20,000 bases of DNA from Neophaeotheca triangularis (Eukaryota). The position numbers and the translations under genes are program-made. Numbering within the stretch: the first letter of the stretch is position 1; every line of letters begins with the position of its first letter. A model generated the notes under the pieces. The model was not told the origin of the DNA. It made no database searches and saw only the letters and a list, made by a program, of their open reading frames with translations. The stretch is taken from the NCBI GenBank assembly GCA_054600435.1, contig BAAIJX010000043.1, positions 176,906 to 196,905 of the forward strand, in the 5' to 3' direction. Shown piece by piece: positions 2,747 to 20,000 of the stretch.

Positions 2747-3509
2747 GATGGCGAGCGCAATGTTGTTGTGAGAAGGAGCGAAGCGAGTGGTATTGCTATT
2801 GTGTGGTCAATGCGAGTAGAAAAGGTGCTGAGTTGGAATGTGAGGTGAGGTTGCTAGAAAGCGAAAGAGTCTACCAGCATGTTTTCTCCAAGTGAGCTCC
2901 TGGACATGAAAGCCCGTGTGGACGTCATTCTTGCCTGAGAAGGAAGGCACGTCGTTGGAGAAAACGGCGGGAGCACCCGCAGTCGTCGCTATGGTAAACC
3001 TACAACCCACAACGGTAACTCCCTTAATCTTTGCCGCATGCTACTCTGCCAGATTGTGTTCCTCCAAACTCAGGCCGGGAGCTACCGAATGGCTTGAAGG
3101 GTCGAAACATCTGCCAGCAGCACAAATCGGGTTCAGGGGTTCACCCGGCCTCACATGGTCGACCTCTTGAGCTTCCACGGCCGAATTGACATCTCCTGGA
3201 CCATGGCCAACGGAGCGGGACTGGCGGTGGAAACCCCCATAACTTTGCTGGCCGACGACATCAGCGATAACGCCAGCCTTCTTGCAGCCACCTCTGTTAG
3301 AACAACTCTCTGCACAATCGATAGGCTTGAAGGCGCCAAAGTCGTACGATCGAGGGAAAAAAGAAGTCGCCGCGAAGCATCGCCCACCTCTGAACAAGGA
3401 CCGTGATTTCTAGCAAAGGCTCGTAAAGATCCGCCAGCGGTCCATACGATCCTGATGTACTGACCTAGAGGCTTCCGGGTCGACGCAACATGCCCATGGC
3501 TTCACAAGT

Positions 3510-4373
3510 TCACCCTCTACCCTCAGTGATGATTCCAATACTTGGGGCCTCCAGACTACCCCCAAGCTCAACTACCGTCCGATCATAAACCCTAGAGACA
3601 GCAACATCCCAACTCTCCTGCTCCTCAACCCCATCATCTTCCTCCAACCTATCCCCCTCAAGCACCAGCTCCCCATCCGTCTCATCGCCCACCCCCGCCT
3701 CTTCCTCCTCGGCCTCCTCCCCCCCTCCTCCCACAACCTCCGCAACAGAAACCCTAGTCCTCTCAACCAAACTCCTAATCCTCACCTTCTCTGTCCCACT
3801 AACGCCCCTCCCCCTATCAAACCCCGGCAACGGAATTCCAGTCTGTACATCCCTGGCCGTCAACAAACTCGCAAAGACACGATCGAGCTGATCCAAAGTC
3901 TTAAACATGGCTCGCGGCGTCGGCGGCATCGCTCGCACGATATCCGCCAACAGTAACGCCAGAGTGATGAGGTAGGGGATTTGCAACGAGGGCGTGCCGG
4001 AGACCCAGATCACGGAGACGAGCTCGGAAATATCTTTGCAGGCTTCGCGCATGGACTTGTAGCCTTGGACGTCTGTGGGCCAAGATTGCGGGGCGGTGTT
4101 GGTTTGTTGGGGTATGGGCTCGGTGGTGGCTTGCCAGGTTGATGGATCGCGCGGCGAGGTGCGCTTGGCGAAGCGTCGCTGGATGTGTAGCATGCGGGAG
4201 TCAATATGTCGGATCAAAGTGGATTCTTTGGGACCGCCGGGTTTGAGGGGCGTGTGACGGGGACTAGGGAGGGTTCCTGCTGGTACTGTGCCCGGTCTTG
4301 GGGAGCTGATGGATGAGGCTGGTGGCGATGGGAGAGTGAAGCCGCCGGGCTGTTGTGCGGGAGAAGACATCAT
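3510..4373 (-). CDS. Tfb6-like (TFIIH-associated subunit, PF17110-like) protein
   Basis: 302-codon ORF; the first real ATG is at 4373 (MMSSP..., 287 aa). Motifs LPSPRHTPLKPGGPKE, GYKSMREACKDISELVSVIWVSGTPSLQIPYL, TEKVRIRSLVERTR and VSRVYDRTVVELG match my recollection of filamentous-fungal Tfb6-domain proteins. Confidence 0.7.
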   Translation of the reverse strand: MMSSPAQQPGGFTLPSPPASSISSPRPGTVPAGTLPSPRHTPLKPGGPKESTLIRHIDSRMLHIQRRFAKRTSPRDPSTWQATTEPIPQQTNTAPQSWPTDVQGYKSMREACKDISELVSVIWVSGTPSLQIPYLITLALLLADIVRAMPPTPRAMFKTLDQLDRVFASLLTARDVQTGIPLPGFDRGRGVSGTEKVRIRSLVERTRVSVAEVVGGGGEEAEEEEAGVGDETDGELVLEGDRLEEDDGVEEQESWDVAVSRVYDRTVVELGGSLEAPSIGIITEGRG

Positions 4374-4702
4374 GGGAGAGTTGTGGCTAATTAAGGAGAG
4401 CGGTGTAACACTTGCCACTTGAATCGAGAGCGATGTTGCTATTTATCTGAAGCAACGTGCTTCGCGGCGATGTTTAGAAGCTGAGGATGTCGTCTGGACT
4501 CGAGGACCGCTTCAATGTAGCTTATCTTATCTACAATCTGCTGACAAGCTTGGAAGATTGAGGGTTCGGGCTAGTCATAAGAGGTAGGCCTCCGGGCTGC
4601 TTCGGAGAATTAACGACCTTCATCACCATGTGAATGACACACTGTTCACCTACCAAGCAAGGGAACTGATTATATACAAAGTGTGCTATGTTAGAGTCTT
4701 TT

Positions 4703-7315
4703 CTAGTGCCCGATGCCCCCAGCAATCCACTCCGCCCGCGCCGGATCACCTGGCGGAGGAAACATGCCTCCAGCGGCCTGTTGCCCATCCACAGGCGGTT
4801 GCTGCTGCTCACCCTCCCCCTGCCTCCTCTCCTCAGCATTCCGCCTCTGCTGCCTGCGATAGAAAACAAGCCAAGCAAGAGCAGCGAGCAAACCACCTAT
4901 TAGCAGCGTCTCGATCAAATCGTCATCAATATCCGCATCGTCCCAATCGCCACCAGGCATTGGATCGTAGTCGTCGGGTTCATACTGCGCGTCCTCCATC
5001 TCCTGGTGGTACTGTGCGGCATCGGCTTCTAGGAAGTCGTCCAGCCATTGCGACCAGCTGCGCTTCTTCTTTTGCTCCTTGAGCTCCGTCTCGGGCCCGT
5101 CGTCGATACCGTGAATACTGCCGCCCGAGATTCCGTTCCACCAACTGCGCCATCTGAGTTTCCAGAGAGAGAGTTGGACGGGAAGGTAGGCTTCTGTGTT
5201 CGTCGCGAGAGCTTGGTCGTAGAAGCGCTTGGCTAAGTGGAAGTCTTGGTCGATGCCAATGCCGTTTTCGTGCATCCAGCCTAGGTTCCACATTGCTTGC
5301 GCTGAAAGCATGGATTCTGCTGCTGCCTGGTAGCAGGATGCTGCATTTTCGAAAGAGGTTGGTGCACCGAGGCCAGAAAGATAGTAGTCGCCCACCTTCA
5401 CTTGCGAGTCGATGTTGCTCTGTTTTGAGGAGCGAGTCCAGTACGTGAGGGCAAGAGTGGCATCGTTTAGAAGTGCCGCCGTTTTGTCTGTAGCGCTTGC
5501 AGATAACGATCGCAGCCAGGTCAATGGGCTCCATGTTGGCGTAGTATGGTCCAGGAGGTAGGCGACGTTGGCTTGAGCATTCTCTGAGCCTTGCTCGGCA
5601 GCCATAAGGTAGCCGATAAGAGCTTTTTGATTATCGCCATCTTCATAGGCGGCGTAAGAGTCGGTCAACGAACCCCAGATTGCTTCGACCTTCTCGGCAA
5701 CTATCTTGTAATGCGCAGCCGCCACATTACACGATCGCTCACGCCCAATACCCTGATCGTTCAGCTCCGCAAGGTAATAAAAAGCTTCAATGTGGGAGTT
5801 GCGAGCAGCGTATTCAAAGTAGCGAATTGCCGTGGGGACGTCGCCTTGATCGAGGAAAAGAGCACCAAGGTTGGTCTGCGCGACGGCCAAATCCTGGTCA
5901 GCGGCTGAAGCCAGCAAGTCTGCAGCCCTCATCACATCAACTTCGACGCCATAACCGCGTAGATACATGATCCCCAGGCTGTACTGACAAAGGGCGTCGC
6001 CGTTGGCCAAACCTCGTAGAAACCAGATTTTTGCCTTGCTGAAGCTCTGCTCCATGCCTTCGCCGCGCAAAAACATCCGACCAAGGTATCCCGCGGCCTT
6101 CGATGCCAGCTTCTCAGTACTGGGAGAGACGTCGCTCTTGATTTTGCCGTCACTGGCCCAGTATTGTCGTGCGACGGTCATGAAGTATTCCTTGGCCACC
6201 TTGACGTCACGAGGCAGTCCGCGTGCGCCATCATAATGGAGACGAGCGAGCCCATAGGTTGATGTAAGCTGGCCCTTTGATGACTGAAAGTGCAGATACT
6301 CGAGGACATCGTCCACGTCTGCATATGCATCGCTCGTGGGGCCACCCTGCTTCGCGAGCATACCAGCGCTACTGACGGAAGCGCCTTCGCCATACACACC
6401 GCCATGCTCATCTGCCAGCCTATAGCTCTCACGAACTAGACTGTTGCCGCCGGGAGGTCCGGATCGGTAGTATTGTATAGCCTTGTCCGCCACTTTCCTG
6501 TACCAGTGCACAGCTTCATCACAGTTCCTCGGCGTTGCAACACCCGCGTAGTGCCTATACGCCAGAGTCATCTCTGATCTTGTGTTCCCCTGCTCCGCCG
6601 CGAAAGTGTGATAAAGCATGCTCTTAGCCTGGTCTGCCGGTCTATCCACGCTCAACCCCGTGGCATACAGAAACCCCACCATATATTGTGCTGTACTGTT
6701 GCCATCCAACGCCGCCAATTGTTCGTAAAGGTCGAAAGCTGTTTCGTAGTTGATCGGGTGCGTGTAGTTTCCATGGAAGTTCATCTCCGCCAACAGAAAG
6801 AGAGCGTCCGGGTCGTCATCCTTCGCAGCCTCCTTGAGCAGCTTGACTGCCTGACCCAGGGGCTCTCCAAGCTTGGCTGGGCGGCTGGAAGAAGTCGTCA
6901 AGACGTTGGACGATTGCGGAGCGTTCATGAAAAGGAGTACGAAGGCTTCTTTGGCGTAATAGACAGTGGTCCCAAGGAAGCCTTTCGGCTTAGCTGTGTA
7001 TTGGACTAGCTTTGAGGTCGTTGGCGGTTTGATCTTGCGCAACAGATCTGAGGCCTCGTTGACCGCTTCCGAGGTCTTTCGATCATGCTGCCCGTTGGCA
7101 TGTACATTGTCGGTAGACAGCTCGTCGACGCCAAATACCTCTTGTTTCGGTTGCTGAGCGTCTTCCAAGACAATCTCTTCATGGGCATAAGACGAAGCGA
7201 GGAAGAAGAGGAAAGTAACTAGACAGGTATTAGAAAAAGGCTGGGCGACATTATTAGCAAAAAGAGTAGACATGCCTAGTAGAAGAGGCGCATTGCGCCA
7301 GCTGCTGTGTCTCAT
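4703..7315 (-). CDS. HRD3: ERAD ubiquitin-ligase complex subunit Hrd3/SEL1L (Sel1 repeats, type I membrane protein)
   Basis: N-terminal signal peptide; many Sel1 repeats (AQYMVGFLYATG, SEMTLAYRHYAG, AAGYLGRMFLRGEG, AMWNLGWMHENGIGIDQDFHLAKRFYD); acidic juxtamembrane segment; single TM helix (LLIGGLLAALAWLVFY); C-terminal GMFPPPGDP...WIAGGIGH. About 851 aa after removing the 57-nt intron. Confidence 0.95.
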   Translation of the reverse strand: MRHSSWRNAPLLLGMSTLFANNVAQPFSNTCLVTFLFFLASSYAHEEIVLEDAQQPKQEVFGVDELSTDNVHANGQHDRKTSEAVNEASDLLRKIKPPTTSKLVQYTAKPKGFLGTTVYYAKEAFVLLFMNAPQSSNVLTTSSSRPAKLGEPLGQAVKLLKEAAKDDDPDALFLLAEMNFHGNYTHPINYETAFDLYEQLAALDGNSTAQYMVGFLYATGLSVDRPADQAKSMLYHTFAAEQGNTRSEMTLAYRHYAGVATPRNCDEAVHWYRKVADKAIQYYRSGPPGGNSLVRESYRLADEHGGVYGEGASVSSAGMLAKQGGPTSDAYADVDDVLEYLHFQSSKGQLTSTYGLARLHYDGARGLPRDVKVAKEYFMTVARQYWASDGKIKSDVSPSTEKLASKAAGYLGRMFLRGEGMEQSFSKAKIWFLRGLANGDALCQYSLGIMYLRGYGVEVDVMRAADLLASAADQDLAVAQTNLGALFLDQGDVPTAIRYFEYAARNSHIEAFYYLAELNDQGIGRERSCNVAAAHYKIVAEKVEAIWGSLTDSYAAYEDGDNQKALIGYLMAAEQGSENAQANVAYLLDHTTPTWSPLTWLRSLSASATDKTAALLNDATLALTYWTRSSKQSNIDSQVKVGDYYLSGLGAPTSFENAASCYQAAAESMLSAQAMWNLGWMHENGIGIDQDFHLAKRFYDQALATNTEAYLPVQLSLWKLRWRSWWNGISGGSIHGIDDGPETELKEQKKKRSWSQWLDDFLEADAAQYHQEMEDAQYEPDDYDPMPGGDWDDADIDDDLIETLLIGGLLAALAWLVFYRRQQRRNAEERRQGEGEQQQPPVDGQQAAGGMFPPPGDPARAEWIAGGIGH
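7219..7275 (-). other. Probable 57-nt GC-AG intron in HRD3
   Basis: Minus strand: G|GCATGT...TTCTAATACCTGTCTAG|TT. Removing it joins MRHSSWRNAPLLL to VTFLFFLASSYA, giving a clean signal peptide. Confidence 0.75.
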
Positions 7316-7982
7316 CTTGGACGCTGGTTACAGGTGCGATTCCAATTCCGGCGGACGATACACATGGTACTGCTCAAACATCAACAGCTCACAAGCATTA
7401 CCTACTTGGAGCTGGGGGATCGGTAGCAAATGTGTACTAGTATGTCTGTCACTTGGATTGTGTTTGGGCTGACTGGGTGACTGGCCAGCTGGCTATCCGT
7501 TCCTTTGTCCGGGAGAAGACGAGCAGCAGGCAGTTCGCAGCCACAACCAACGCCAACGCCAACGCCACACCTGATACGACGGTCGTACACTCCTACGAAG
7601 ACTCGGATTTTTTTCCCGCGGCCCCGCGGCTTTACTGAACTTTTAAACTTCTTTGTTTTCCCTTATAGTACTACTCCCTCTTTATTTACACACTATGCGC
7701 ACCTTTGTTATAATGGTTCAAGTCCTACATTTCTTTTATGCCGCAAATTGCGATTATGGCCGTATACGGCCTAAGGCATTATTTCGCGCGGTACGCGACA
7801 GCTATAAAGTCGCGACCTTACTACCTCGTCTACCTTCTACCACTACTACTACCTACCGGTCCCTTTACTCGATCACACTAAGCCTACCTCGTTAGGGTAT
7901 AGTAGTCATAGTCTATTAAGTATCTACTAGCTTATAGGCTACATATCATACTAACAAAACTACTAGCTAAAATTCACTCGCT

Positions 7983-8557
7983 ATACCCCCTAAAAACAAA
8001 AAGTAGGTGTTTTTCCCTAAATTAAATACCTTTTAAGTATACTCTATACTAACTTAGGCTTAAATAGACATAAAGTTAGTCCCGAGCCGGACCTAAGCGA
8101 TATTACTATCTACGACCTTAAAAGGCTCCGCCGCCCTAAAACTACTAACTCGAGCGACTTTTAGTTCGTGAAGTAAGAGACTTAGGACGAGTAGCTTAGC
8201 AAGTCAAAAGTAGGTACAATATATAAAAATGCAGCTAATAAGTTAAGGAAGTTTACTACGGCTAGTAAGATTATAGAGGATAAGGAGGTTAGGATAGATG
8301 TAGTAGAGCCTTACTCGGAGTATACTCGCTATAGTAATTAGCTACCTTACCGTGTTTATAAGCGCCTTAAGCTCGAGAGCGGCATAGTAGTCGATAAGGG
8401 GGAGATATATGCGCTTTATAAAAGGTAGAGTAAGTCTCGCTACACTACTAACTACTAAAAGAGTCCCCCCTCGATTAAGGAGCGATTACAACTAGCGGAG
8501 GCTATAATTATGACTCTCTCTACTAGAGTCCGTACGCTCGAGTCTATAAGGCCGTAA
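7983..8557 (+). pseudogene. Gene A: RIP-inactivated small Zn(II)2Cys6-like protein with C-terminal coiled coil (~169 aa)
   Basis: ATA (former ATG) at 7983, MPPKNKK. Intron 8003-8067 (GTAGGT..ACTAAC..TAG) restores the frame. TAC/TAT codons at 8312, 8321, 8348, 8408, 8417 and 8441 give C-x2-C-x8-C-x19-C-x2-C-x7-C if reverted to TGC/TGT. Then IKERLQLAEAIIMTLSTRVRTLE. TATAAAG at 7803 and a CT-rich tract lie upstream. The true stop position is uncertain. Confidence 0.65.
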
Positions 8558-8806
8558 GTAAGGGGAGGTTAAATAAGGAGTTTTAGGTTTTAAGGGCTAA
8601 ATCTAGCTATTATACCCCTAAGTTAACTACGAGTCGGAGTTTGTTTACTTTAAAAATCAATGAATTTATTAAATCTTACCTAAATTCAACTAATTAACCC
8701 TATAAACCTTAATTTTACTCCTTAAAATCTATGAAAAATCACTAAAAAAACTCGAATTTTAAGAATTTCTCTTATATTATAAATTGAGAAGCAAAAAAAG
8801 AACGAT

Positions 8807-9146
8807 TTATTAATACTTATATGCAAATAGTAGCTAACTCGCAATTTTACAAAATAAAAAGGATAAGAAAAGAAGGAAAAACTAGTAACTAAAAGAAAAA
8901 ACCACTTAATTCAAGAGCAAATCCGCGAAAAAAAAAGCAAAAAAAAAAGTATATTATTAATACTTATGCCTATATAGTAGTTAACTCGTAAAATAGACTA
9001 AACTAAACTCCTACCCTAAAAAACTAAATTAATCAAAAAAAGACTAAAAATCAAAAGAAAAAACCTCTTAGAGCGCCCGGTCATTATAAGAAGAAAAAAA
9101 CCGAGATTTTGTTAATATTTATGCGTACATAGTGGCTAACTCGCAA
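8807..9146 (+). repeat. Three 38-bp direct repeats within an A-tract-rich intergenic region
   Basis: 8807-8844 TTATTAATACTTATATGCAAATAGTAGCTAACTCGCAA; 8954-8991 TTATTAATACTTATGCCTATATAGTAGTTAACTCGTAA; 9109-9146 TTGTTAATATTTATGCGTACATAGTGGCTAACTCGCAA. Start-to-start spacing is 147 and 155 bp. Confidence 0.9.
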
Positions 9147-9258
9147 ACATATTTCTTTTAAGTAAAAAAAACGAAAAAAAGCAGTAATCATAAGCACTAA
9201 GTCCTACGGCTCCCCCCTACACCTACATAGAGTATAGGTACTATAAGTCTCCTACTAT

Positions 9259-10421
9259 TTACCCCTTCTTCCCCCTTCCTTTACCCTTACCCTTACCCCT
9301 AGACTTTCCCTACCCCTATCCCCCCTACTAACCTCCGTCTTCCTTATCGATAGGCCTAGCTCGTTTAGAGCGGCGAGGCATCTTCCCTTCCTTACCATAT
9401 AACTTATCGCTAGTCCGTATACCGCTAGAACCCCTATTATTATAGGTAAGAGGGTCGAGGGGGTCTAAAGGTAGTAGACTCGATAAGCGCGACAAACTGT
9501 CGTTACTAGTACTAGTCATATCTTACTTATCTCGCGTAGTAGATTTACTGTCCGCTTCCCCCTCCGGTTCCCCCTCTTACTCCCCCTCTTACTCCGTATC
9601 CCCTCCGTACCCTATAAATGTATTAAAGGTCGGCCTAGGGACTAGATCGTAATAGAACAACTCGTTCCCGCCTTACATAGCAGCTCATATAGCTTATAGG
9701 GTTAGTATATAGCCTACTAGGTCTATAAACTCCCTAATCACGTTAGGGAGCTATACCCTCGAAGTCTATAACTACTCCTTCTTAATCGGCGTATCTCTAG
9801 TCTCTATACTATAGCGTACATCTTCGCTAGCGTCGTCGCTAGTCCGGTGGTTCTAGGGTGTTACTATTGTCTTACTCTTCTTACTCTTCTTCTTTTTGCT
9901 CTAATAGTTAGTACGTAACTAGATAACGATTACTACCTTATAAGGCTTGTTTTTACTAGCCTTAAAGGAGATTAGTACTTCTCGGACCGACATGCTCTCG
10001 ACTACACTACTATAGTCGCGCGGACAATCGTCGTCGTCGAAACTATTGATAAAGCGATAAGTGTAGTACCGAGTCTAGGTCGATTTAGGGTCCCTCGTCT
10101 ACTTATTACTATACCGCGTAGTCAAAAAGCCTAAAAGAGATAAGCTAGACTCGACGAAAGCCTACTCTATAAAGCCGTCCGTAACCTCCTAGATCTTACG
10201 TAGCTCGTCATACTTCTATAGGTCTATACTAGGCTCGTCGCCGCTATAAGTAATAATAGTAACCTCTTATAACTAAAAAGTGACCTCTATCCGGAACTTA
10301 ATAGGCTTTAGAGCTAGAGGTCCGGAGCTATTACTACGCTAAGTCGCCTCCGAGTTATGTAAGCTTAAAGCCGTTAAGCCTATATAAGGCCTACCCTAGA
10401 GGTTTTGTAGTCGATTACTAG
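9259..10421 (-). pseudogene. Gene B, 3' part (interrupted by the LTR retrotransposon); hypothetical protein with acidic region and Gly/Lys-rich tail
   Basis: One continuous frame with RIP-type stops: NRLQNL*GRPYIGLTALSL...KPIKFRIEVTF...SKKKKSKKSK...E*EGE*EGEPEGE...GKSRGKGKGKGRGKKG-TAA (9261-9259). Includes track ORF 9328-9519. Confidence 0.7.
10417..10421 (+). repeat. Left 5-bp target-site duplication ACTAG
   Basis: Immediately precedes the TG of the 5' LTR; identical ACTAG at 17156-17160. Confidence 0.9.
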
Positions 10422-10637
10422 TGTGAGAGGGAGAATCCCCTTCACATGATGTATAAGCCGTACGTGATCCGTACGAGCTATGCTTAGCACCTACAGCTAA
10501 ATATTAGCTAAGTCGGGTACCTACATATAAGTTCCTCAAGAAATATTGTATATACATTATAGTAGACACATTTCCATCTCACGCTACTAGTTAGTGTTAT
10601 GCTGTACATATTCTACATTAGACAATATACCCTTACA
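10422..10637 (+). repeat. 5' LTR (216 bp, TG...CA)
   Basis: TGTGAGAGGGAGAATCCCC...TACCCTTACA; aligns without gaps to 16940-17155. Confidence 0.97.
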
Positions 10638-10648
10638 TAATATTTCTT
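10638..10648 (+). promoter_or_regulatory. Primer-binding site complementary to the LTR interior (self-priming type)
   Basis: AATATTTCTT (10639-10648) is the exact reverse complement of AAGAAATATT (10538-10547) in the LTR. There is no TGG-type tRNA PBS. Confidence 0.7.
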
Positions 10649-10666
10649 TAGAGATAGTAGCCCGAG

Positions 10667-11737
10667 ATAGTCGAGACACGCTAATCGTCCCGCCTAGTGT
10701 CGGATAAAACCTAGCGACTAGGGACAAGCGATTCGTACATAGACCGCGACTTAGATATAGGCATCCTAGCGACGATTAGCGAGCGAATCGCCACGCTTAA
10801 AGTAGAGCGAGATGCGCTACGCTAAGCGTCTACCCTTACACGACTAGAGCGCGATGTGGAGGCGCTAAGACGAGGTAAAGAACCCGCCTTAGAGCCGGGT
10901 CGTACGACGACTACACCTTAAGAGCACGCGGTGAAGAAGCGCACATTACGACTAAAAGACCCGGAAAACTATAGTAGAAAAACGCTAAAGGCATATAGAG
11001 TTTTCATGCGGGAGTGTGAAATGGCTTTTAATGTGACCCTAGACAACTTTTAAAGCGATCACTATAAGATCATATAGGCTATGTAGTTTCTCCGAAACAC
11101 CCCTACTAATTCATAGTTTAGCTACTAGCGATCTCTCGATAACTCGACTCGAGTAACATAGGACGACTTTACGAAGTTCCTACTAGACGAGGTCGAAGAT
11201 CCGTTTAACCGTAGGTTAGACATAGCTAAACGATATAATAATGTATACTAGGGAACCTACTCGGTAAAGGATTTCGCAATCTACCTCGAGACCCTCAAAG
11301 ATTAGCTCGCTCTATATAGCGAAGAACACCGTATCGAGCACTTATATACGAAGCTTTAAAAAGAGCTCCGTATTACCCTCACGAATCTCTATAAGATGCC
11401 TATCACACGGGAGTCGCTCGTAGTAAAGGCGGCTACCTTAGAGCGTAACATGCGAAAGAGCGGCATAGCTAAGTCGTACACGATAGGCGCGGCGACTACA
11501 TCTCGGTCGCATAACAAGCGTAAGGGCGACGAGAATAAGAAAGAAAATAGTGGAGACAAGAAAGAGAATAGAACAAACCCGGGCGTATACACACTAGCTT
11601 CGACATAGTCGGGCGACACTAGGATTTGCTATACCTACGGCTAAAAGGGCTATATCTCTCCTACCTACCTAAAGAAGAAGGACAACCCTAATAGCCTCCT
11701 AGTTAATAACATCTAAGGAAAAGACCGCACGTCCTAG
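10667..11737 (+). pseudogene. gag: gag (RIP-inactivated)
   Basis: ATA-GTC-GAG-ACA-CGC (former MVETR start); LKDPENYSRKTLKAYRVFMRECEMAF; track ORF 11396-11608 is in this frame. Zinc knuckle at 11627: C-Y-T-Y-G-*-K-G-Y-I-S-P-T-Y, which reverts to CX2CX4HX4C. Confidence 0.9.
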
Positions 11738-14700
11738 ATAACTCGGGACAAGTAAGGCGTAAACAGATCGACCTTATGCCGCCGATAGAACGTACCTAGG
11801 ACATACTCGACTCGTAATTGCGACCACGGCCTATCCGAGTTACCTTAGACCCCGGGGACGCGGTAAGTATAATTAGCTAGGCTATAGCGAAGCAACTAAG
11901 CCTTATACTAGTTAAGAGCGATCTGCCTGTCCTAGTATAGGTAAATAGTAAGAGAGAGTACTACTACGTAGTATACGAGGTTAACCTATAGGTAACTAAC
12001 GATAAAGGGGAGTTTCGCGTATTCTCCGCTATAGTGTATAGGATCGATAAAGAAGGCCCTAACCTACTCATTAGGAATTCTACCCTAAAAAGACAAAGCG
12101 TCACAATCGACTATAGAACGCAGCTGTTCCGCTTTAGCCTCGTTAATAAGGCGCGGGTATAGCTCGTTAAGCTCGATGACCTAATAGACAAAGAGAAAGG
12201 CACTCTCGCTATACTAGGCATAGTCTAGCTAGTTTACGAACTATAGGCGTTAGGAATAGCGGCATTGTTTAGTATAGGCGAAGAGCCCGAGGTATGTATA
12301 CTAGACGCACTTTAGGAATATGTGGATGTATTCTCCGCGGATTCGGCAGCCTTACTCCTAGTACATAAAGGAACCGACTACTAGATTAACCTATACCCTA
12401 ACATAGAGCTACCTTATAGACCTCTATATAACCTATCGCATAGGGAACTCGAAATCTTAAGAAAGTACCTAACAAAGGCCCTTAAGAGGGGCTAGATAAG
12501 ACATAGCACTTCTCCTACGGGAGCCCTAGTGATGTTCGTTCCGAAGAAGGACGGCACTCTACGACTATATGTCGATTATTGTGTAGTTAATGAGCGGACA
12601 ATCAAGGATCGATGTCCGATTCCACTAATCGGCGAGACCCTCGATCGATTAAGCGGTGTAAAGCACTACTCCTACCTAGACCTAAAAGACGCCTACTACC
12701 GTATTCGAATAGCGGCGGGGGATAAATGGAAGACAGCTTTTCGCACTAGGTATAGTCATTTTAAGTACCTAGTTATGCCTTTTAGATTAGCTAATGCCCT
12801 AGCTACCTTTTAGGCCTACATAAACCGCGTATTAGCGGGTTTAGTCGACATTTTATGCGTTGTCTACCTAGATGACATTTTAATCTATATATATAACGCA
12901 GACCTTAAACGCTATTAGATCGTAGTTCGAAAGGTCCTAGACCGCTTACGAAACGCATAGCTATTTGTAAACCTTAAGAAGTACAGTTTCGCTATCTAGT
13001 AGGTAGAATACCTAGGATTTATCGTGAGCATAGAAGGTGTTTAAGCTGACCCTAAGAGGGTAGCGACAATCTAGGAATGGCTAGCTCCTTAGATAATCAA
13101 GGAGCTCTAAGGCTTCCTAGGATTTACGAACTTTTACCGCCGTTTTATCGTAGGATACTCGCGTATTGTTACGCCCCTTACCGCATTAACGCGGAGGGAT
13201 ACCATATAGTAGTAGGAAGGCGATATAGAGCGTGCCTTTAACTAGTTGATCGACGCTTTCTAACATGCGCCTATCCTATAGCATTTCAACGTATTATAGG
13301 TAATTCGCCTTGACATAGATATATCGACTTTTGCGATTATAGGCATCATGTTATAGCAAGACGAGAATAGACAATAGAGGCTAGTAGCCTTTATCTCTCG
13401 TAAGCTAGAACTAGTAGAGCGGAACTACGAGGTATATGACTACGAGCTTATAGCCATCGTGTTCTATTTCAAGTAATAGAGGCATTACCTCGACGGTACC
13501 TAGCATACTACTTAGGTCTATATAGACCATAATAACCTATAGGGTATACGCGATGTATAGAAGCTTAACCCGCGATAAGCGAGGTAGGCAATGTTCCTTA
13601 CTAGCTTCGATTTCGAAGTCTACTACTAGGTAGGGAAGACAAATCCTATAGACGGACCTTCGCGAAGGCCGGACTACTATATAGAGAATAACGTAGTTAA
13701 CTCCCTATTACCTACTCTTTAACACAAAGTGCGTTTGTTAACAGACAAAACCCTACCGGAGTACGCGAATACGTTCGTAATTAGGGCTACGAATACCGTA
13801 ACTATAGCGGGTAAGTAACGCTTATTGTCCGTACCTTAAGGGGTTATAGAACACACTAACGAAGGATTGCCGGATCCTATGTCTAGCATAGCTAGGTGCA
13901 TACAGCGCGTACCTCGTCATATAGTAAGGTTACTACCAAGTAATGAACCTATATAGGGTATAGGCGAGTAGTTACGAGAAACGATCTATAAGATATAGTA
14001 GAGGGACGCCTTTACATGTAAACGATTATATACTGCCTCGCACGACACTCGTACTACCCGAAGTAGCGATGCGTAGCCTTAGCGTAAAGACGAGAACGGT
14101 CTTCTCTAACGTAAGGGGAGACTATACATTCCTTGTAAGGAGTCATTCTAGGTAGAGCTTCTACGGAAGTATTATGATGATCCTATAGCGGGTCATTATA
14201 GAGCCCTCCGCACATAAGAACTCCTGTCTAGGCACTATTAGTGGCTAGACATAGAGAAGCATGTACGAAACTATGTTAGTACATGTGCGGTTTACTAGCG
14301 GAGTAACGCACTAAGACATAGGCCTTATAGCGAGATGAGTTCTTTACCTGTCCCTAAAAATGTGTCTAAAGAGTTAACTATAGACTTCATTATAGGGCTG
14401 CTACCGTTAAAACGAGACAACTACGTATATGATGCGATCCTCGTAATAGTCGACCGCTACTCAAAGATAGTCCTCTACATACTAGCTTGTAAAACGTGGA
14501 CTACTTAGGACTTTACGAGAGTCTTTACAGACTACGTAATATGTAAGCATAGTGTACCTAATAGGGTTGTCTCTAATAGAGGATCGATCTTCATATCGGC
14601 ATTTTGGTCTAAGATATGCTTCTAGTTACGCATAACGAGACGCCTATTAACCGCATTTCATCCGTAAACGGATAGCTAGACAGAAAGACAAAACTAGGTA

Positions 14701-15456
14701 CTAGAGCATTACCTAAGAATCTTCTACTACGAACAGTAAGATGATTAGGCTCCTATACTCCTAATTGCTAAGTTCACCTACAATAATATAGTGCATTTAA
14801 GTATAGGGACTTTACCTTTTTAAACATACTGCGGTAAATCCGGTAATTACCCCGAGGCTCCTAAGGATAGTCGCCCTAGAGGGGAGGTACCTACCGCGCA
14901 TAATAGAATAAACTACCTATAGGAGATACGCGAGTAGCTTAAGAAGAAGATCCGAGCCGTATAGGAATCGTAGAAGAGGCATTACAATACGAAATACTAA
15001 CTAATGCGTTTTAAGCCAGGAGATATAGTGATACTAAACACTAAGAACCTTAAGGTAAATAGACTAAGTAGGAAGATGTTAGACAAATTCATCGGGCCTT
15101 TTAGAGTCAGCACCGTAGTTAGCTCGTAGGCGTACCGCATATAGATACCACCTACATATTAGGTACATGACGTCTTCTATATGTCTCTACTAGAACCCTA
15201 CTACTACCGGAAAGGTTAACCTTTAGACAATATAGCGGAGCTAGAGGTCCTTCTAGACGGTAACGAGGTATAGGAGGTAGAAGGTATCTAAAAGAAGAAG
15301 AAGGTTAAGGGAGACACCTTGTACCTAGTCAAATAGAAAGGTTATGATACTAGTTAGAACTAGTAGGTCCCTAAAGAAGACTTCGAGAACATATAGGAGT
15401 CGATTGATAAATTTAAGGCGCGAAACAAGCGCGGGAAACGTACGAAGAAGACATGA
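11716..15456 (+). pseudogene. pol: pol polyprotein: protease, RT, RNase H, integrase, chromodomain (RIP-inactivated), in the -1 frame relative to gag
   Basis: Protease LDPG at 11845; [29 protein letters not shown] and YLDD at 12865; RNase H ERNYEVYDYELIAIV and IDHNNL; integrase IDFIIGL, VIVDRYSK and TAFHP*TDS*TERQN; chromodomain *EVEGI...YLVK*KGY at ~15271-15420; TGA at 15454-15456. Sampled positions from protease to stop are all in one frame. Confidence 0.95.
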
Positions 15457-15465
15457 TTAGATATA

Positions 15466-15614
15466 GAGCCGTATAGGCTCGAGATTAACCCCGAAGGGAA
15501 AATATCTACTAGTAGAGGCCCCGAAGGGCAACGCCTAAAGGACTTTACAAAAAGCTAAAAAACAACGTAAACTCTAAACCTATAAAGACCCTAGAGGGTA
15601 ATAACCCCGGAGGG
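15466..15614. repeat. Cluster of short hairpins/palindromes, including four CCCYRRAGGG-like copies, downstream of pol
   Basis: GAGCC-GTATA-GGCTC at 15466; CCCCGAAGGG at 15489 and 15519; TCTACTAGTAGA at 15505; CCCTAGAGGG at 15589; CCCCGGAGGG at 15605. Confidence 0.7.
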
Positions 15615-15717
15615 AAGAGAGCACCTAGAACTATACTATAGAAATAGGAGTAACACGCGATTAACATGCGCTTATCCTACGGCTAGAGGCTAGAACGCCG
15701 GTACTACGCATAACCGC

Positions 15718-16489
15718 CTAGGCATTATCCGGAGCCTCGGAGGGCTCGGAGACGATAGTGTTAGCGTCGCTTTCGTCGCCGCTACCCTTAGAGTTAGAGT
15801 CCGAAGACTCCTCCTCGTTAGGCGTAAGCCCGCGGCCCTATAAATTAGTTAGTGAAAAGCGTAAGAGTAAGGTACGATAAAGGGGTAAACATACGATACG
15901 ACGCCACGTCTTCGCTATACCCTTAAGATGCTTCTCCTACTTCTCCTAGGAGGATAGGATTAGACTAAGGAAGTCCTATGTGCTAGTAGGGACCTTAGTA
16001 GGAACCCTAGTAGCGCGACCACGACGCCTAGCGACATGCTTACGAGCGAGGTACGAGCGATATGTAGTGCGCTAGGCACGCGTAAGCTTTATACCGACAC
16101 GACGAACTACCGGCACCTTAGAAGTAGCCCTACTACCCCTATTGTTATTAAGGGTAGTGACATACTCCCTATAGAGCTAGTATAGACGCTCGGCGTAGCC
16201 CTAAAACTCGCGAGGAAGCTGTAAATCATAGTTAGCTCGTAGCTTATTGAATCGCAACCTAAGAACTTATAAGGTAATAGTTAGCCCTATAGCCCTTATT
16301 GTACTTCTAGTAGGCCTTTTCACTAATGTCGTAGATAGGACCGTTCTTCGCAATGTTAGCGAAATAGCGCGAGTAGGTAGGAACGCGAGGCGCGTTCGTA
16401 TTAGCTACGAGCGTGGTGCGGCTAAACTTGTATTCGGTAACGCCGCGCGTAGACTTAGTAATGTACTTAGGGAGTATATAGTTAGGCAT
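15718..16489 (-). pseudogene. Antisense three-exon accessory gene inside the retrotransposon; Zn(II)2Cys6-like protein (~220 aa)
   Basis: Exons 16489-16271, 16218-15895 and 15837-15718, all multiples of 3. Introns 16270-16219 (ATAAGT from GTAAGT..GCTAAC..CAG) and 15894-15838 (GTATGT..ACTAAC..TAG). All 7 internal stops are TAG. Reversion gives C-x2-C-x10-C-x6-C-x2-C-x7-C; the C-terminus is acidic. Confidence 0.85.
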
Positions 16490-16660
16490 GTTAATGGTAA
16501 GAGTCGTTAGTAGTTATTATGCATATAATATGTATATAGTAGATAAAGAAGGGGTAGAGCGCGTAGAATCGGTAAAGGTGTTAAGAGGGTGTTGTTGTTA
16601 TAAAGAAGGAGAAGAGTCGAGGGTAAGAAAGTCGAGGGAGCAGACCTTAAAGGGGGCGTA
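16490..16660 (-). promoter_or_regulatory. Putative core promoter and 5' UTR of the antisense gene
   Basis: Minus strand reads CCCCCTTTAAGGTCTGCTCCCTCGACTTTCTTACCCTCGACTCTTCTCCTTCTTTATAACAACAAC...TTACCATTAAC-ATG: a TATA-like element, a CT-rich tract typical of fungal promoters, and a Kozak-like context. Confidence 0.55.
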
Positions 16661-16926
16661 GTCTTTATTGCCCTTAGTAACAAACTCGCCTTTATTACCT
16701 AATGCGGAAAGCATAAGGCCTAGATACGCGCTTTATTAACGCTCTGTATACGGGCGTTATGCGATAAAGGAGAGTCACGTAGAAGCTTCTCATCACCTAC
16801 CTAGACTCGAAGAAAACAAAGGAACATACTAGAGCCGGCGTAATAAGGACACTCTTTCCTAAGGATTTCCTAAAGGGTTTGCTAGGTTTTATCGAGGCCT
16901 TATATTACTACTAGGGACATTAGCGT

Positions 16927-16939
16927 AGGGGGGAGCGAA
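16927..16939 (+). promoter_or_regulatory. Polypurine tract
   Basis: AGGGGGGAGCGAA directly before the 3' LTR. Confidence 0.9.
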
Positions 16940-17155
16940 TGTGAGAGGGAGAATCCCCTTCACATGATGTGTAAGCCGCACGTAATCTACACGAGCTATG
17001 CTTAGCACCTATAGCTAAATATTAGCTAAGTCGGGTACCTATATATAAGTTCCTTAAGAAATATTGTACATACATTATAGTAGACACATTTCCATCTCAC
17101 GCTACTAGTTAGTGTTATGCTATGTATATTCTACATTAGACAATATACCCTTATA
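16940..17155 (+). repeat. 3' LTR (216 bp, TG...TA; terminal CA mutated by RIP)
   Basis: Gap-free match to the 5' LTR with 14 differences by manual count, all transitions. Confidence 0.97.
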
Positions 17156-17160
17156 ACTAG
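17156..17160 (+). repeat. Right 5-bp target-site duplication ACTAG
   Basis: Matches 10417-10421. Confidence 0.9.
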
Positions 17161-17575
17161 TTAGTATATAGTACTCGTTAGCACGGGATTTTTAGAAGAC
17201 GGTATGCGTAGGACGGATTTAGCGGCCTAGATCGCTATCGTCTCGGTCTATAACTCCTACTACTAGGTTCCTATAGCTATGCTCTCGATTCGCTAGTTCC
17301 TAATAGGAGGAGGTCTAGGAGCTACCGCCGGTATAGTTAGAGGTGTTTGTCGAGGATATATGCTAGTCTAGATAGACGCTATCTCGTAGTAGGCCTCTTA
17401 GGGTAGTAGTAATAGGGACTACTAACGAATAGTAGACACCCCTCCTATCTAGGGGGTAGGGGTTACGGAGTCTATACGCGGGACATACGTCTAGGTAGCT
17501 ATAGAGTCGCTCGTGATTCCCCTTCGAGCGCGGGCAAATCGGATTGTTAGTCTATGTCAGCATTTAGTTGTCTAT
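17156..17575 (-). pseudogene. Gene B, 5' part
   Basis: GCCACT-ATA (former GCCACC-ATG) at 17575; reads DN*MLT*TNNPICPRSKGNHERLYSYLDVCPAYRLRNP...IRPTHTVF*KSRANEYYILTS, in frame with the 10416-9259 part once the retrotransposon and one TSD are removed. A CT-rich minus-strand tract lies upstream at ~17680-17720. Confidence 0.7.
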
Positions 17576-17942
17576 AGTGGCTCGGTTAGAGATATACGCG
17601 TAAGTAAGGTTAAGACGAAAGATGATGTTAAAAAAGAGCAAGAAGTAAAGCTATATATATATAGAGACAACTACGAGGTAGAAGAGAGTAAAAGGAAGAA
17701 GAAAGAGGGAAGGGGGGACGGCTATCTTATTAAACAATAGGACGACTAGTAGCGGTATGTTACTTACCCTCGTATATAGAACTATGTAGGCGCGATTTAC
17801 GCGTAATGTGTCGTAAATCCGAGGTAAAATTTCTAAAATAGCGGTACTAACCCCTATACTTTATATAGGATGTTAAATCTAGTAAGTATAGTATAATCTA
17901 GACTAGACGCCCTTACGAGTAGTACCCCGAGACACATACGAT

Positions 17943-19253
17943 TCACTCTAGGCTAGGGTCAATAAATGCTATAGGAGTATAGTTCATATTACCTAGCTCT
18001 AGCAATTTAGCGTTACCTAGGCTAGTACTACTAATAAATAGCTCCCCTACTACATTAAACACCCCCTTAGCTACATTAGCGGCTCGCTACTATGCCGCTG
18101 CTAGTAGTCGCGCGAGCTTACTAAGATCCGGGGCCTCTCCGTTCTATATATAGCTATAAACTCGATCTATGAGGGCTAAAAACATATGTCGATGTAACCG
18201 CGAGCTGTCTACGGTAGTCTATATACTGTCGAGTCCTATAAATCCGAGCTCCTCTAGAGTAGTAGTATAAAACTGCTTAGTAGGCTCTAGTAGGTAGGCG
18301 TCGATATCTAAATACTTAGTTAGCTACTAGATATTATGTAACTCGCGCACTTTTACTTATAGAAATCCGCTAACTCGGCCTATAACGGAAGGATGAGTTT
18401 AGTAAGCATAGTATAGCTATAGTCTTATTTCCCTTATATCTATAGGTACTCGAAGAGTAGATCTAGGACCCCTAGCGTCGAGTAAGGCGCTTTTAGCTAC
18501 TTCCTTATAGTGTATCTATTCTAGAGCTTCGTAAACTTAATAAGTTAGTCATAAATAATAGATATATAGACTATAAGGAAAGTAATGCGGTAATAGAGTA
18601 AGGCCGGCCTATAGATACCCCTCCTTACTAGTGACTCGAAGTATAACTTCTATACGTTAATTGCTCCTTTATATAAGACCGAGACTATGACTCGGTCAGG
18701 ATTATGGCGGAGCGAGGGCGGAGCGTAATCATAGTAATAATAGTAATAGTCCTTTAATATAGAAACTATTCGATAGTAGATAGGAGACTTCACTATTAGC
18801 CATCTTATATACTTTCGTAGTATGTACACTTAGTACTCCCGAGCTACTCTATAGCTTAGGCCGCTAATGTCCCGCTAGCGCCGCGGTCGTGACAATTGCC
18901 TCCCTCTCTAGTAGCTCGTCCTCGAGCTAGTACTTATAAGTATAGTTATGCGAAACCCCGTTATAGCGTATATATTAGCATCCTCGTTAAAAACCTCGGT
19001 AGTGTCTTTACTAAGGAAAAGAGTAATACTACGTACCGCCGTCGTACTATTAGGTCCCTAGAGTGAATTTACCCTAAACCTAAGTTCGCTACGGCGAGGT
19101 ACGTTATCGTCGCGATAAGCGGTATTAACGGCTACGTAGCGGTGATCTAGCGGAGCGGTAATTACTAGCGGAGCCTTAGCGTGATTATGCTGTAATTACG
19201 TAGAGGTAACCTACTAGCTACTTCTCTTTCGAAGACTTCCTCCTTTTAACTAT
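17943..19253 (-). pseudogene. Gene C: RIP-inactivated spliced hypothetical gene
   Basis: Clear intron 18360-18308 (ATAAGT from GTAAGT..GCTAAC..TAG) joins STLGVLDLLFEYL...AELADF to YIDAYLLEPTKQFY...AFIDPSLE-TGA (17945-17943). A second intron near 18536-18580 is probable. The start (ATA-GTT-AAA-AGG-AGG-AAG at 19253) and 5' exon structure are tentative; TATATAAAG lies on the minus strand at ~19351-19359. Confidence 0.55.
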
Positions 19254-19610
19254 AACAATAACAATAGCCTCTATTCCGTCGTAGTCCCTTTAGCGTACTA
19301 GTCTACCTTTTAATAAGGTAACCTTCTTTGTCGGTAAGTGAACTTTAGTTCTTTATATACGCGCTACCGTCGGTCCGTATACGGTTCCTATTGTTCTTCG
19401 ACAATAAAACTAACCTTACCTAGTTTCCTATTATTACCTGCTTCCGGTAACCTTTCGAAAACCTTACCTAGTGCGGTTTAACAAAAAGGCGCTCCTCGTA
19501 CCTCTAATACCTTCTTCCCTTCTTTATCGACTACTTTTTTCGCGATCTTCGCTATCGCCCTTTTTCGCTAACTCTATTCACTGCCTTTATTACTCCGCCG
19601 CCGTTCTATT

Positions 19611-20000
19611 ATGCCTCCGCGTATTAGTAAGCGTCCAAAGGCGCTAGTCGACTATAGCGTTAGCGCTATAGCTATTAATAGTAAGGGTGCCTTTACTATA
19701 GATAGGGCGATTGTCGCTAAGGGAGTCTTTATAACTAAGGGCTACTATCGGATCGCCGCTAGTAGCTTCACGGAGGAGGAGTTAAAGGATCTAGTTAATG
19801 AGTCGAAGTCTACTAAGAAGGGTTTAAAGTCGGAGGGTATTAGTACGAAGCGCGCTACGGCCGTTAAGGGTATAGGCTTGAAACGCAAGTATGCTAAGGG
19901 TAATAATAGTGAGGAGAGTAGGTCTAATAAGGGTACGCTAGCGTTCCGTTACTTCGCCGACATCGATAAGGGTAAGGAGCTTGCTCCTATCGATGTTAAT
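19611..20000 (+). pseudogene. Gene D: RIP-affected hypothetical gene, 5' 130 codons, running off the window
   Basis: ATG at 19611 after a CT-rich tract (19500-19610); MPPRISKRPKALVDYS...FTEEELKDLVNESK...LKRKYAKG...FRYFADIDKGKELAPIDVN with no stop to base 20000. Missed by the ORF track because it has no stop. Confidence 0.65.

Follow-up and report, generated by a model that had tools for sequence, protein, structure and literature searches.

Long terminal repeat (LTR) retrotransposons are usually described as gag-pol machines. Extra genes on the opposite strand have been reported from a few plant families and from the fungal Boty elements, none of them with a known function. Boty-like elements of Botrytis cinerea carry an additional antisense gene, brtn (Zhao et al. 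2011, Virology 417:248; as cited in PMC7264820 and PMC8365987), and the first of these two accounts groups Boty with the plant elements Grande, RIRE2, Retand and PvRetro13 as carriers of antisense open reading frames (ORFs) of unknown function between pol and the 3′ LTR (PMC7264820). According to PMC8365987, brtn is part of BcGypsy1 and is missing from the B05.10 annotation now in use; two further texts mention it in passing (PMC4227169, PMC5987419). LTR retrotransposons with an additional antisense gene, among them a fungal chromovirus, are already on record as a kind. Here we describe a stretch of 20,000 nucleotides (nt) from the fungus Neophaeotheca triangularis (GCA_054600435.1, contig BAAIJX010000043.1, positions 176,906–196,905), called the window below and numbered from its first letter. 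It contains a chromovirus degraded by repeat-induced point mutation (RIP), and in that element a minus-strand, three-exon gene which is very probably the RIP-killed copy of an accessory gene belonging to a lineage of ascomycete chromoviruses.

The gene is modelled on the minus strand with its ATG at 16489, exon 1 at 16489–16271, exon 2 at 16218–15895, exon 3 at 15837–15721 (39 codons) and a terminal TAG at 15720–15718. An earlier note, made from the letters of the window, had proposed a gene of about 220 codons with TAG as its only stop, and the count agrees: the 221 codons comprise eight TAG (seven internal and the terminal one), no TAA, no TGA, no Cys and 17 Tyr. The reality of the gene is settled by homology, because a family profile matches exactly these exons. 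This profile, built from 33 homologues with no window sequence included, was compared with the six frames of the 20 kb and matched 16489–16265 (E 8e-11, profile positions 2–78) and, in a different frame, 16221–15757 (E 4e-28, positions 76–219), with nothing beyond the exons (next best E 0.33). The switch of frame between the two matches falls exactly at the 52-nt intron 1, and with both exon blocks matched in this way the proposal of an antisense gene with two phase-0 introns after pol proves correct. As for the splice signals claimed for each intron, the CTAAC branch sites, the YAG acceptors and the donor of intron 2 are all in place; the donor of intron 1 is not, and now reads ATAAGT. With seven internal TAG, six Cys turned into Tyr and an AT at the donor of intron 1, the window copy is a dead relic.

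RIP leaves non-coding DNA rich in TA, TAG, CTAAC-like and GTA-like words, and the frame with its introns might accordingly be a product of chance. Taken by themselves, the intron signals and the open frame do not clearly exceed chance and are suggestive, not decisive. The minus strand holds one intron-like motif with a strict donor and six with a RIP-tolerant donor, against about 0.8 and 1.9 expected per 12.5-kb strand in first-order Markov shuffles of RIPed DNA, and TAG-tolerant frames of at least 100 amino acids number 39 in 13 kb, with several on both strands of the region between pol and the polypurine tract. TAG-tolerant frames of at least 201 codons would arise by chance about 0.07 times in 1.5 kb, an estimate drawn from the density of TAA and TGA (0.036 per codon). 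A chance origin is already refuted by the profile, which matches both exon blocks and nothing else in the window, and the pattern of substitution speaks in the same sense, all six Cys columns falling on Tyr codons. At the 100 columns where at least 60% of the homologues agree, the window agrees at 46 and differs at 54; for 19 of these 54 differences, C>T or G>A changes alone suffice to lead from a codon for the consensus residue to that of the window, against two for the reverse transitions and two for a transversion control. The probability left for an artefact of RIP is negligible.

The element that carries the gene, a chromovirus mutated by RIP, spans 10422–17155 and has LTRs of 216 nt and a target duplication of 5 bp. 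Its LTR pair was found as a direct repeat (10422–10635 and 16940–17153, 214 nt, 94% identity), the full ends being read in the alignment. Between 10640 and 15500, one forward frame contains Pfam matches to RVT_1, two RNase H models (including RT_RNaseH), Integrase_H2C2, rve, SH3_Tf2-1 and Chromo, in that order; reverse transcriptase, RNase H and integrase in succession with a C-terminal chromodomain define a chromovirus. Chromo scores 21.3 bits in the RIPed window against a cut-off of 25.1, and 31.9 bits in the 50%-identical pol of an intact relative, L001, so that the classification given in the earlier note rests on the domain order in the window and on a chromodomain above the cut-off in L001. 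The gag-pol frame has 109 stops in 1605 codons (70 TAG, 37 TAA and 2 TGA) and no change of frame; since this damage consists of substitutions only, as RIP gives, further genes of the element can be expected to have kept their frame as well. The six frames of 15456–16940 are without a Pfam match. It is in this region that the antisense gene runs, from 16489 to 15718 on the minus strand, with the end of pol at 15456 on one side and the polypurine tract at 16923 and the LTR at 16940 on the other. In position and strand, and in its conservation in copies and relatives, it corresponds to an antisense ORF between pol and the 3′ LTR (aORF-3R). The CT-rich tract reported upstream of the ATG is likewise present on the minus strand (~16580–16650). 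The features of the element are as follows.

10417–10421, no strand: target-site duplication ACTAG, 5′ copy (the same five bases stand directly beside both LTRs)
10422–10637, plus strand: 5′ LTR, 216 nt, TG...CA (direct repeat, with ends in the alignment)
10642–15456, plus strand: gag-pol in a single frame, interrupted by substitution stops only (Pfam domains in one of the three plus frames; stop counts)
15457–15717, no strand: spacer on which pol and the antisense gene converge, likely 3′ untranslated region and terminator, to judge from its position only
15718–15837, minus strand: exon 3 with the terminal TAG, acidic Ser-rich tail (sequence; weak family-profile match, E 0.024)
15838–15894, minus strand: intron 2, 57 nt, phase 0, with GTATGT, CACTAAC and ATAG (same profile position as the 60-nt intron of L001)
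15895–16218, minus strand: exon 2, 108 codons, basic helical core of the family (HMMER E 7.8e-11 to P0004; family profile E 3.9e-26, positions 77–180)
16219–16270, minus strand: intron 1, 52 nt, phase 0, donor now ATAAGT, GCTAAC and ACAG present (the frame of the profile matches switches here)
16271–16489, minus strand: exon 1, 73 codons, N-terminal arm and six-Cys domain, all six Cys now Tyr (E 8e-17 to exon 1 of L001; family profile E 4.5e-13)
16490–16922, minus strand: upstream region of the antisense gene and its putative promoter, with the CT-rich tract at ~16580–16650 (sequence)
16923–16939, plus strand: polypurine tract GCGTAGGGGGGAGCGAA (the 9-mer at its start also directly precedes the LTR-like segment of L001)
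16940–17155, plus strand: 3′ LTR, 216 nt (direct repeat, alignment)
17156–17160, no strand: target-site duplication ACTAG, 3′ copy (alignment)

A scan of JGI metagenome contigs with a four-row family alignment returned two loci, L001 and L002. L001, of 5981 nt, is not RIPed. One of its strands carries a 954-residue open pol fragment with reverse transcriptase, RNase H, integrase, SH3 and a chromodomain whose 31.9 bits lie above the Pfam cut-off, followed further along by a 387-residue gag with a zinc knuckle and a protease-like frame. On the opposite strand, between pol and gag, stands an intact three-exon gene (ATG 2111, stop 3018–3020) which ends 96 nt from the pol stop. Its introns, at 2339–2387 and 2739–2798, have the donors GTAGGT and GTGAGT, GCTAAC branch sites and CAG acceptors, a CT-rich tract lies just upstream of the ATG as in the window, and the predicted protein of 266 residues has all six Cys and a long acidic tail. 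Whether homologues elsewhere also lie antisense between pol and the LTR had been raised in the earlier note, and this distant, intact relative provides one in the same place. Between the upstream region of the gene and gag, a segment of ~115 nt starts with TG and ends with CA; it is preceded by a 9-mer identical to that of the window's polypurine tract, and TGGTATC follows two bases after it. Read by eye, this segment appears to be an LTR with an adjoining primer-binding site. Its boundaries were set from motifs resembling a polypurine tract and a primer-binding site, in a contig with a single LTR copy, and if they are read correctly the LTR (1660–1774, minus strand) would measure ~115 nt against 216 nt in the window, very short for Ty3/gypsy. 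The order pol, gene, LTR, gag is the one to be expected when an assembler passes through a single LTR of an element that is repeated or in tandem.

The two elements are only distantly related: pol is 50% identical over 945 amino acids, exon 1 39% and exon 2 35%, all three figures being lowered by RIP. Since pol has diverged so far and yet the same gene is in place, the gene must have stayed with the element through a long divergence. Its exon structure was retained as well. Profile position 76 is the last of exon 1 in L001, position 77 is the first of exon 2 in L001 and in the window alike, and the two genes share three exons and two phase-0 introns at fixed positions. In homologues deposited unspliced, the residues upstream of the start of exon 2 ([IVLM]-P-x-E-F) end in A/T-N/D-x-x-Q, fitting CTAAC or CTGAC followed by CAG, and those past exon 2 read V-S, V-C or V-G, fitting GTAAGT, GTATGT or GTxGGx. 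Their protein letters thus suggest the conservation of introns which in L001 is seen directly in DNA. In two ENA proteins, P0019 and P0018, both introns are read through in frame without stops, and the residues L-C-F at the start of intron 1 misfit a codon-initial GT donor; the position or phase of this donor may differ in their lineage.

The gene shows a sign of purifying selection. L002, a contig from another sample, departs from L001 at 21 places in 4343 nt (99.5% identity); the five in the exons of the gene are all synonymous, a small number, and one unlikely for a frame that is not read. The introns have none, and pol has 12, of which eight are synonymous and four are not. At its own edge, L002 1–156 is without a match to L001 1430–1585, with the break inside the gag frame near its upstream end, which suggests a different copy or a junction in the second sample.

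These comparisons bear on whether the element merely picked up a host gene. A passenger captured in reverse orientation would keep its introns, and its relatives elsewhere would then be copies of an ordinary host gene. The introns, the separate upstream region and the CT-rich tract are host-like features, several homologues form entries of one member each and come from very long contigs (1.7 Mb, 4.0 Mb and 2.1 Mb), and retroelements are described as capturing additional ORFs (PMC5408684). A passenger would not be expected in the same place and orientation in two elements with pol only half identical, with introns at the same profile positions and with exclusively synonymous exon differences between two recent copies; nor do the several multi-copy clusters whose longest contigs approach the length of an element fit an ordinary host gene. 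Capture as a passenger is for these reasons quite improbable, and an ancient capture followed by retention would make it, in effect, an element gene.

The multi-copy nature of the family can be followed in the individual entries. P0028 comprises 39 member sequences on nine contigs and P0035 is likewise found on nine contigs, and many of the longest contigs of the multi-copy clusters measure 6.0–6.6 kb, about the length of the element. For the window's own species, the contigs of run X1 have a summed depth over 15457–16939 equal to that over pol. Pieces differing from the window cover 15239–15607 and 16538–16911, at both ends of the extra region, and 370 of the 392 variant places are transitions. 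The extra region is therefore part of at least one other, differently mutated copy, and the possibility left by the earlier note that the segment is private to this copy falls away. In the same run, the 3′ LTR (16929–17182) shows about three times the summed contig depth of the element interior (~1100 against 270–420), and several loose ends lie at 17153–17155, a pattern expected of solo LTRs or of additional copies. An air-metagenome run, X2, yielded only a 149-nt LTR piece with one difference, and no sequence of runs X3 and X4, which carry the same organism label, aligned to the window.

The protein family reaches well beyond the two elements. A HMMER search of 1.84 billion representative proteins with the window frame running through exon 2, intron 2 and exon 3, TAG being read as X, gave 12 matches at E<=1e-3. 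One of them, P0014, a 1442-residue F-box repeat protein, was judged a chance match and left out, and the 11 phmmer members of the family range from E 7.8e-11, the best of the search, to 8.7e-4. Word-indexed searches added 3 of 284 candidates, 7 of 5651 candidates and 25 of 8000 scored; no family member from the widest of these searches has a precomputed Pfam domain. The named members are all annotated as hypothetical proteins, from Pyrenochaeta sp. (for example IQ07DRAFT_379335), Alternaria alternata (IG631_00987), Alternaria gaisen and Meristemomyces frigidus (LTR08_000922), and the rest are unnamed ENA, JGI and Logan entries. Annotated homologues in public assemblies also include AA0117_g13260 and AG0111_0g12727. 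Full-length spliced forms are present in Pyrenochaeta, Alternaria and Meristemomyces; their start resembles exon 1 of the window, and the window gene belongs to this family by profile matches that extend across the helical core as well as the Cys-rich N-terminal part. In the ESM Atlas, related clusters of 63 (score 0.90), 157 and 77 members are all unnamed and from Ascomycota. To judge from the named relatives, the chromovirus lineage that carries the accessory gene is probably one of Dothideomycetes. Viral contigs contained no relative recognisable with either of two alignments, and a phage collection, itself uninformative for this question, gave no match to the 1.5-kb region. A 16-residue match in the contig of a bacterial metagenome-assembled genome, beside an elongation-factor-like (GTP-binding) open frame, was rejected as spurious.

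Six cysteines are invariant in nine of nine homologues, in the arrangement C-x2-C-x10-11-C-x6-9-C-x2-C-x7-C. In the alignment, the window has Tyr (TAY) at every one of these six columns and thus keeps the motif as a mutated relic. A single RIP-type transition suffices for the change of TGY to TAY, and likewise for that of CAY to TAY. The conjecture that the run of Tyr in exon 1 once was Cys is vindicated by the relatives down to its spacing, exactly C-x2-C-x10-C-x6-C-x2-C-x7-C, and the additional Tyr outside the pattern, which the conjecture had passed over, corresponds to a His column in the closest relatives.

This constancy also has to be set against the idea that the functional product is the antisense RNA, acting for instance as double-stranded RNA with the genomic RNA, and that the ORF is secondary. 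The geometry would allow it, as the transcript would fully complement the 3′ part of the genomic RNA, and antisense transcripts of fungal transposons are described as regulatory RNAs (PMC10648671). Such a role leaves unexplained why six Cys are invariant across nine homologues, why frames are kept open in several genera and why all five differences in the gene's own frame are synonymous. An RNA as the actual product is accordingly very improbable; a role of the RNA and a role of the protein could exist together.

What kind of protein the accessory gene encodes can be approached through its intact homologues. AlphaFold2 on P0006, with a 33-row alignment, gives a model with a mean predicted local distance difference test (pLDDT) score of 81 and a predicted template-modelling score of 0.66. 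It comprises an N-terminal arm, a short helix at each C-x2-C (residues 40–44 and 62–66), three long helices (77–99, 107–137 and 151–183) and a low-confidence tail. Charge is unevenly distributed in five full-length homologues: the Cys domain has an isoelectric point of 7.8–9.7 (basic in four, near neutral in one), the helical part one of 9.4–11.4, and the Asp/Glu/Gly/Ser tail one of ~4. The basic six-Cys domain would most likely be zinc-binding, and that it binds zinc in some form is, in our judgement, highly probable. A weak ESM Atlas lead for the N-terminal part, PF12511 (DUF3716; score 0.79, 28% of members), came without hmmscan support.

The earlier note had likened the domain to Zn2Cys6. 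On that reading the product would be a true Gal4-type transcription factor (PF00172) binding CGG-type sites in the LTR. The canonical spacing of such domains is C-x2-C-x6-C-x5-12-C-x2-C-x6-8-C. In the present family the loop between the second and third Cys has 10–11 residues in nine of nine homologues instead of six, and the other three spacings are in range. Against a Zn_clus cut-off of 21 bits, one of eight homologues gives a partial match of 12.3 bits (E 0.19) which spans the third to sixth Cys in register with positions 11–31 of the 39 in the profile; the other seven have no match at E<=10, and none occurs in the window frames or in 12 other proteins. A kinship is suggested by the six invariant Cys, and by the short helix which the model places at each CxxC. 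Gal4-type domains have such a helix at each CxxC, and the sequence of basic head, helical middle and acidic tail resembles that of Gal4. PDB chain sequences should include Gal4-type structures, and a profile search of them returned only Skp1 (E 2.3), on the acidic tail. The first, second, fourth and fifth Cys alone are, on our own reading, spaced as in a C4 zinc finger or a zinc ribbon. Membership in Zn2Cys6 is thus not borne out, and a true but divergent relation, with the binding mode that would follow from it, seems unlikely.

An accessory gene of the chromovirus lineage remains the favoured explanation, and a mechanism may be proposed on this basis. The gene lies between pol and the polypurine tract on the strand opposite the genomic RNA, with its own upstream region and two short phase-0 introns. 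By an established logic, splicing does not excise introns from the genomic RNA when they run antisense to it, and each retrotransposition therefore copies them. In intact relatives, the spliced message would give a protein of ~217–266 residues in four parts: a conserved N-terminal arm, the basic six-Cys domain, a basic region of three long helices and an acidic Asp/Glu/Gly/Ser tail. Such an architecture would be that of a miniature Gal4-type factor, in which a basic head that binds metal is followed by a helical middle and an acidic tail. Tentatively, the product may be a small nuclear regulator that binds nucleic acid or chromatin and serves the element, for example as an activator of the LTR, a possibility to which we give somewhat less than even weight. 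The most economical role would be the activation of the element's own promoter, with protection from silencing and the targeting of integration as alternatives. It is tempting to go further and suppose that, in one clade of fungal chromoviruses, the element itself supplies a metal-binding factor for transcription or chromatin through a spliced antisense gene. By binding the LTR or the chromatin of the host, such a factor would turn the element on, shield it from silencing or direct its integration, and its six-cysteine DNA-binding fold would be a new one, related to and distinct from Zn2Cys6; as a whole, this proposition is doubtful. The reconstruction made in the earlier note was right in detail, and its interpretation, an element encoding its own DNA-binding regulator, is partly supported.

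Several points weigh against this picture of an element gene and its product. Pfam gave nothing above threshold for the window frames or the homologues, and the sequence profile search of the PDB found nothing besides the tail match just mentioned. Foldseek against the PDB, with the whole-protein model whose helices dominate the search, returned no match at E<=0.001, and VIA-align against 48,161 chains only generic helical hairpins and coiled coils (Z<=5.3). Folded alone, the Cys domain gave an unusable model with a pLDDT of 46. An acidic tail joined to basic helices would be no less compatible with other roles, for instance the binding of histones or RNA. The case for transcription and splicing is built from conserved signals and annotated gene models, and that for selection from five synonymous differences. 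Genomic context outside the window's genome is provided by L001 and L002 only, which are near-identical and, coming from two samples, count as one, and some of the homologues annotated at NCBI may be host genes.

The gene is open to experiment, as its conserved six-Cys basic domain, helical core, acidic tail, fixed introns and sign of purifying selection make a function testable, and Alternaria is one of the culturable fungi in which intact copies are present. Should the product be an element-made regulator, fungal retrotransposons can carry their own control genes, and the protein would offer a handle on how elements escape or exploit genome defence. In more general terms, even strongly mutated repeats can yield real genes once RIP is read backwards, from Tyr to Cys and from TAG to Gln or Trp.

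The chromovirus lies in a block of DNA that has been mutated as a whole. The first 7000 nt of the window are its GC-rich part (55% GC), and from ~7500 to the end of the window the composition is of RIP type, with 34–47% GC, a TpA/ApT ratio of 1.8–2.3 and a (CpA+TpG)/(ApC+GpT) ratio of 0.28–0.44. In the GC-rich host part, an 878-residue open frame at 4694–7327 on the minus strand encodes a Sel1-repeat protein (PF08238, E 1.9e-39) and is the final unmutated gene ahead of the RIPed block. A TFB6 domain (TFIIH subunit, PF17110, E 3.8e-53) is found in one minus frame at ~3561–4064, and a second minus frame of 1–4699 contains a long open low-complexity stretch without any Pfam match. Between the host genes and the element, no frame of 7400–10421 has a Pfam domain. 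Two interleaved families of diverged direct repeats, three of 58 nt and two of 54 nt, occupy 8787–9146 with a spacing of 147–162 nt and 70–76% identity, in the most AT-rich part of the window (34% GC). Downstream of the chromovirus, 17156–20000 is also of RIP type (TpA/ApT 2.04), with no Pfam domain in six frames and no repeat in common with the chromovirus; from this it follows that the element was inserted into an older, already degraded repeat block.

Among the described systems, brtn of Boty stands closest, being likewise an antisense extra gene of a fungal chromovirus with a function that is unknown. It is the only fungal precedent found in the full-text literature, which (bioRxiv and journal supplements being outside its scope) contained no report of a zinc-cluster or cysteine-rich product, or of conserved introns, for an antisense gene of a fungal LTR retrotransposon. 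The literature check suggested in the earlier note thus cuts both ways: an antisense extra gene in a fungal chromovirus was already in print, and no zinc-cluster or cysteine-rich one was found. There appears to be no earlier description of the protein family, of the six-Cys domain, of the fixed introns or of the spread of the family in elements of ascomycetes. The host of Boty belongs to the Leotiomycetes, and the named relatives found here are those of Alternaria, Pyrenochaeta and Meristemomyces. No BRTN, Botrytis or Sclerotinia protein occurs in the named rows of the word-indexed family searches, in which most rows are unnamed, which depend on shared words and in which no brtn sequence was compared. 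The aORF-3R genes of the plant elements Grande, RIRE2, Retand and PvRetro13 have the same position and orientation, are conserved among the copies of a family and are of unknown function. They belong mostly to the non-chromovirus Tat/Retand lineages, whereas the gene described here adds a six-Cys domain and two conserved spliceosomal introns.

Two further comparisons concern the way in which the product might work. With the fungal Zn2Cys6 factors (PF00172) it shares six Cys in two C-x2-C halves, of which the second, C-x2-C-x7-C, is canonical, a basic context, and the order of head, helical middle and acidic tail known from Gal4. It differs from them in its first half, C-x2-C-x10-11-C in place of the x6 loop, in a Pfam score below the cut-off, in its far smaller size (~220–265 residues) and in having no fungal transcription-factor middle homology region. 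HBZ, of the complex retrovirus human T-cell leukaemia virus type 1 (HTLV-1), is a nuclear basic leucine zipper (bZIP) factor that is encoded antisense, spliced and transcribed from the 3′ LTR itself. Like HBZ, the chromovirus gene lies near the 3′ LTR on the strand opposite gag-pol, and would have a spliced message and encode a small protein with basic and activation-type parts. Unlike it, the gene has a Cys-rich domain in place of a bZIP and comes from an element that is not an animal retrovirus, and there is no homology between the two, so that the comparison points to a possible way of working and not to membership. If the chromovirus does encode a factor of its own, the gene would be a fungal retrotransposon's counterpart to the regulatory genes of complex retroviruses.

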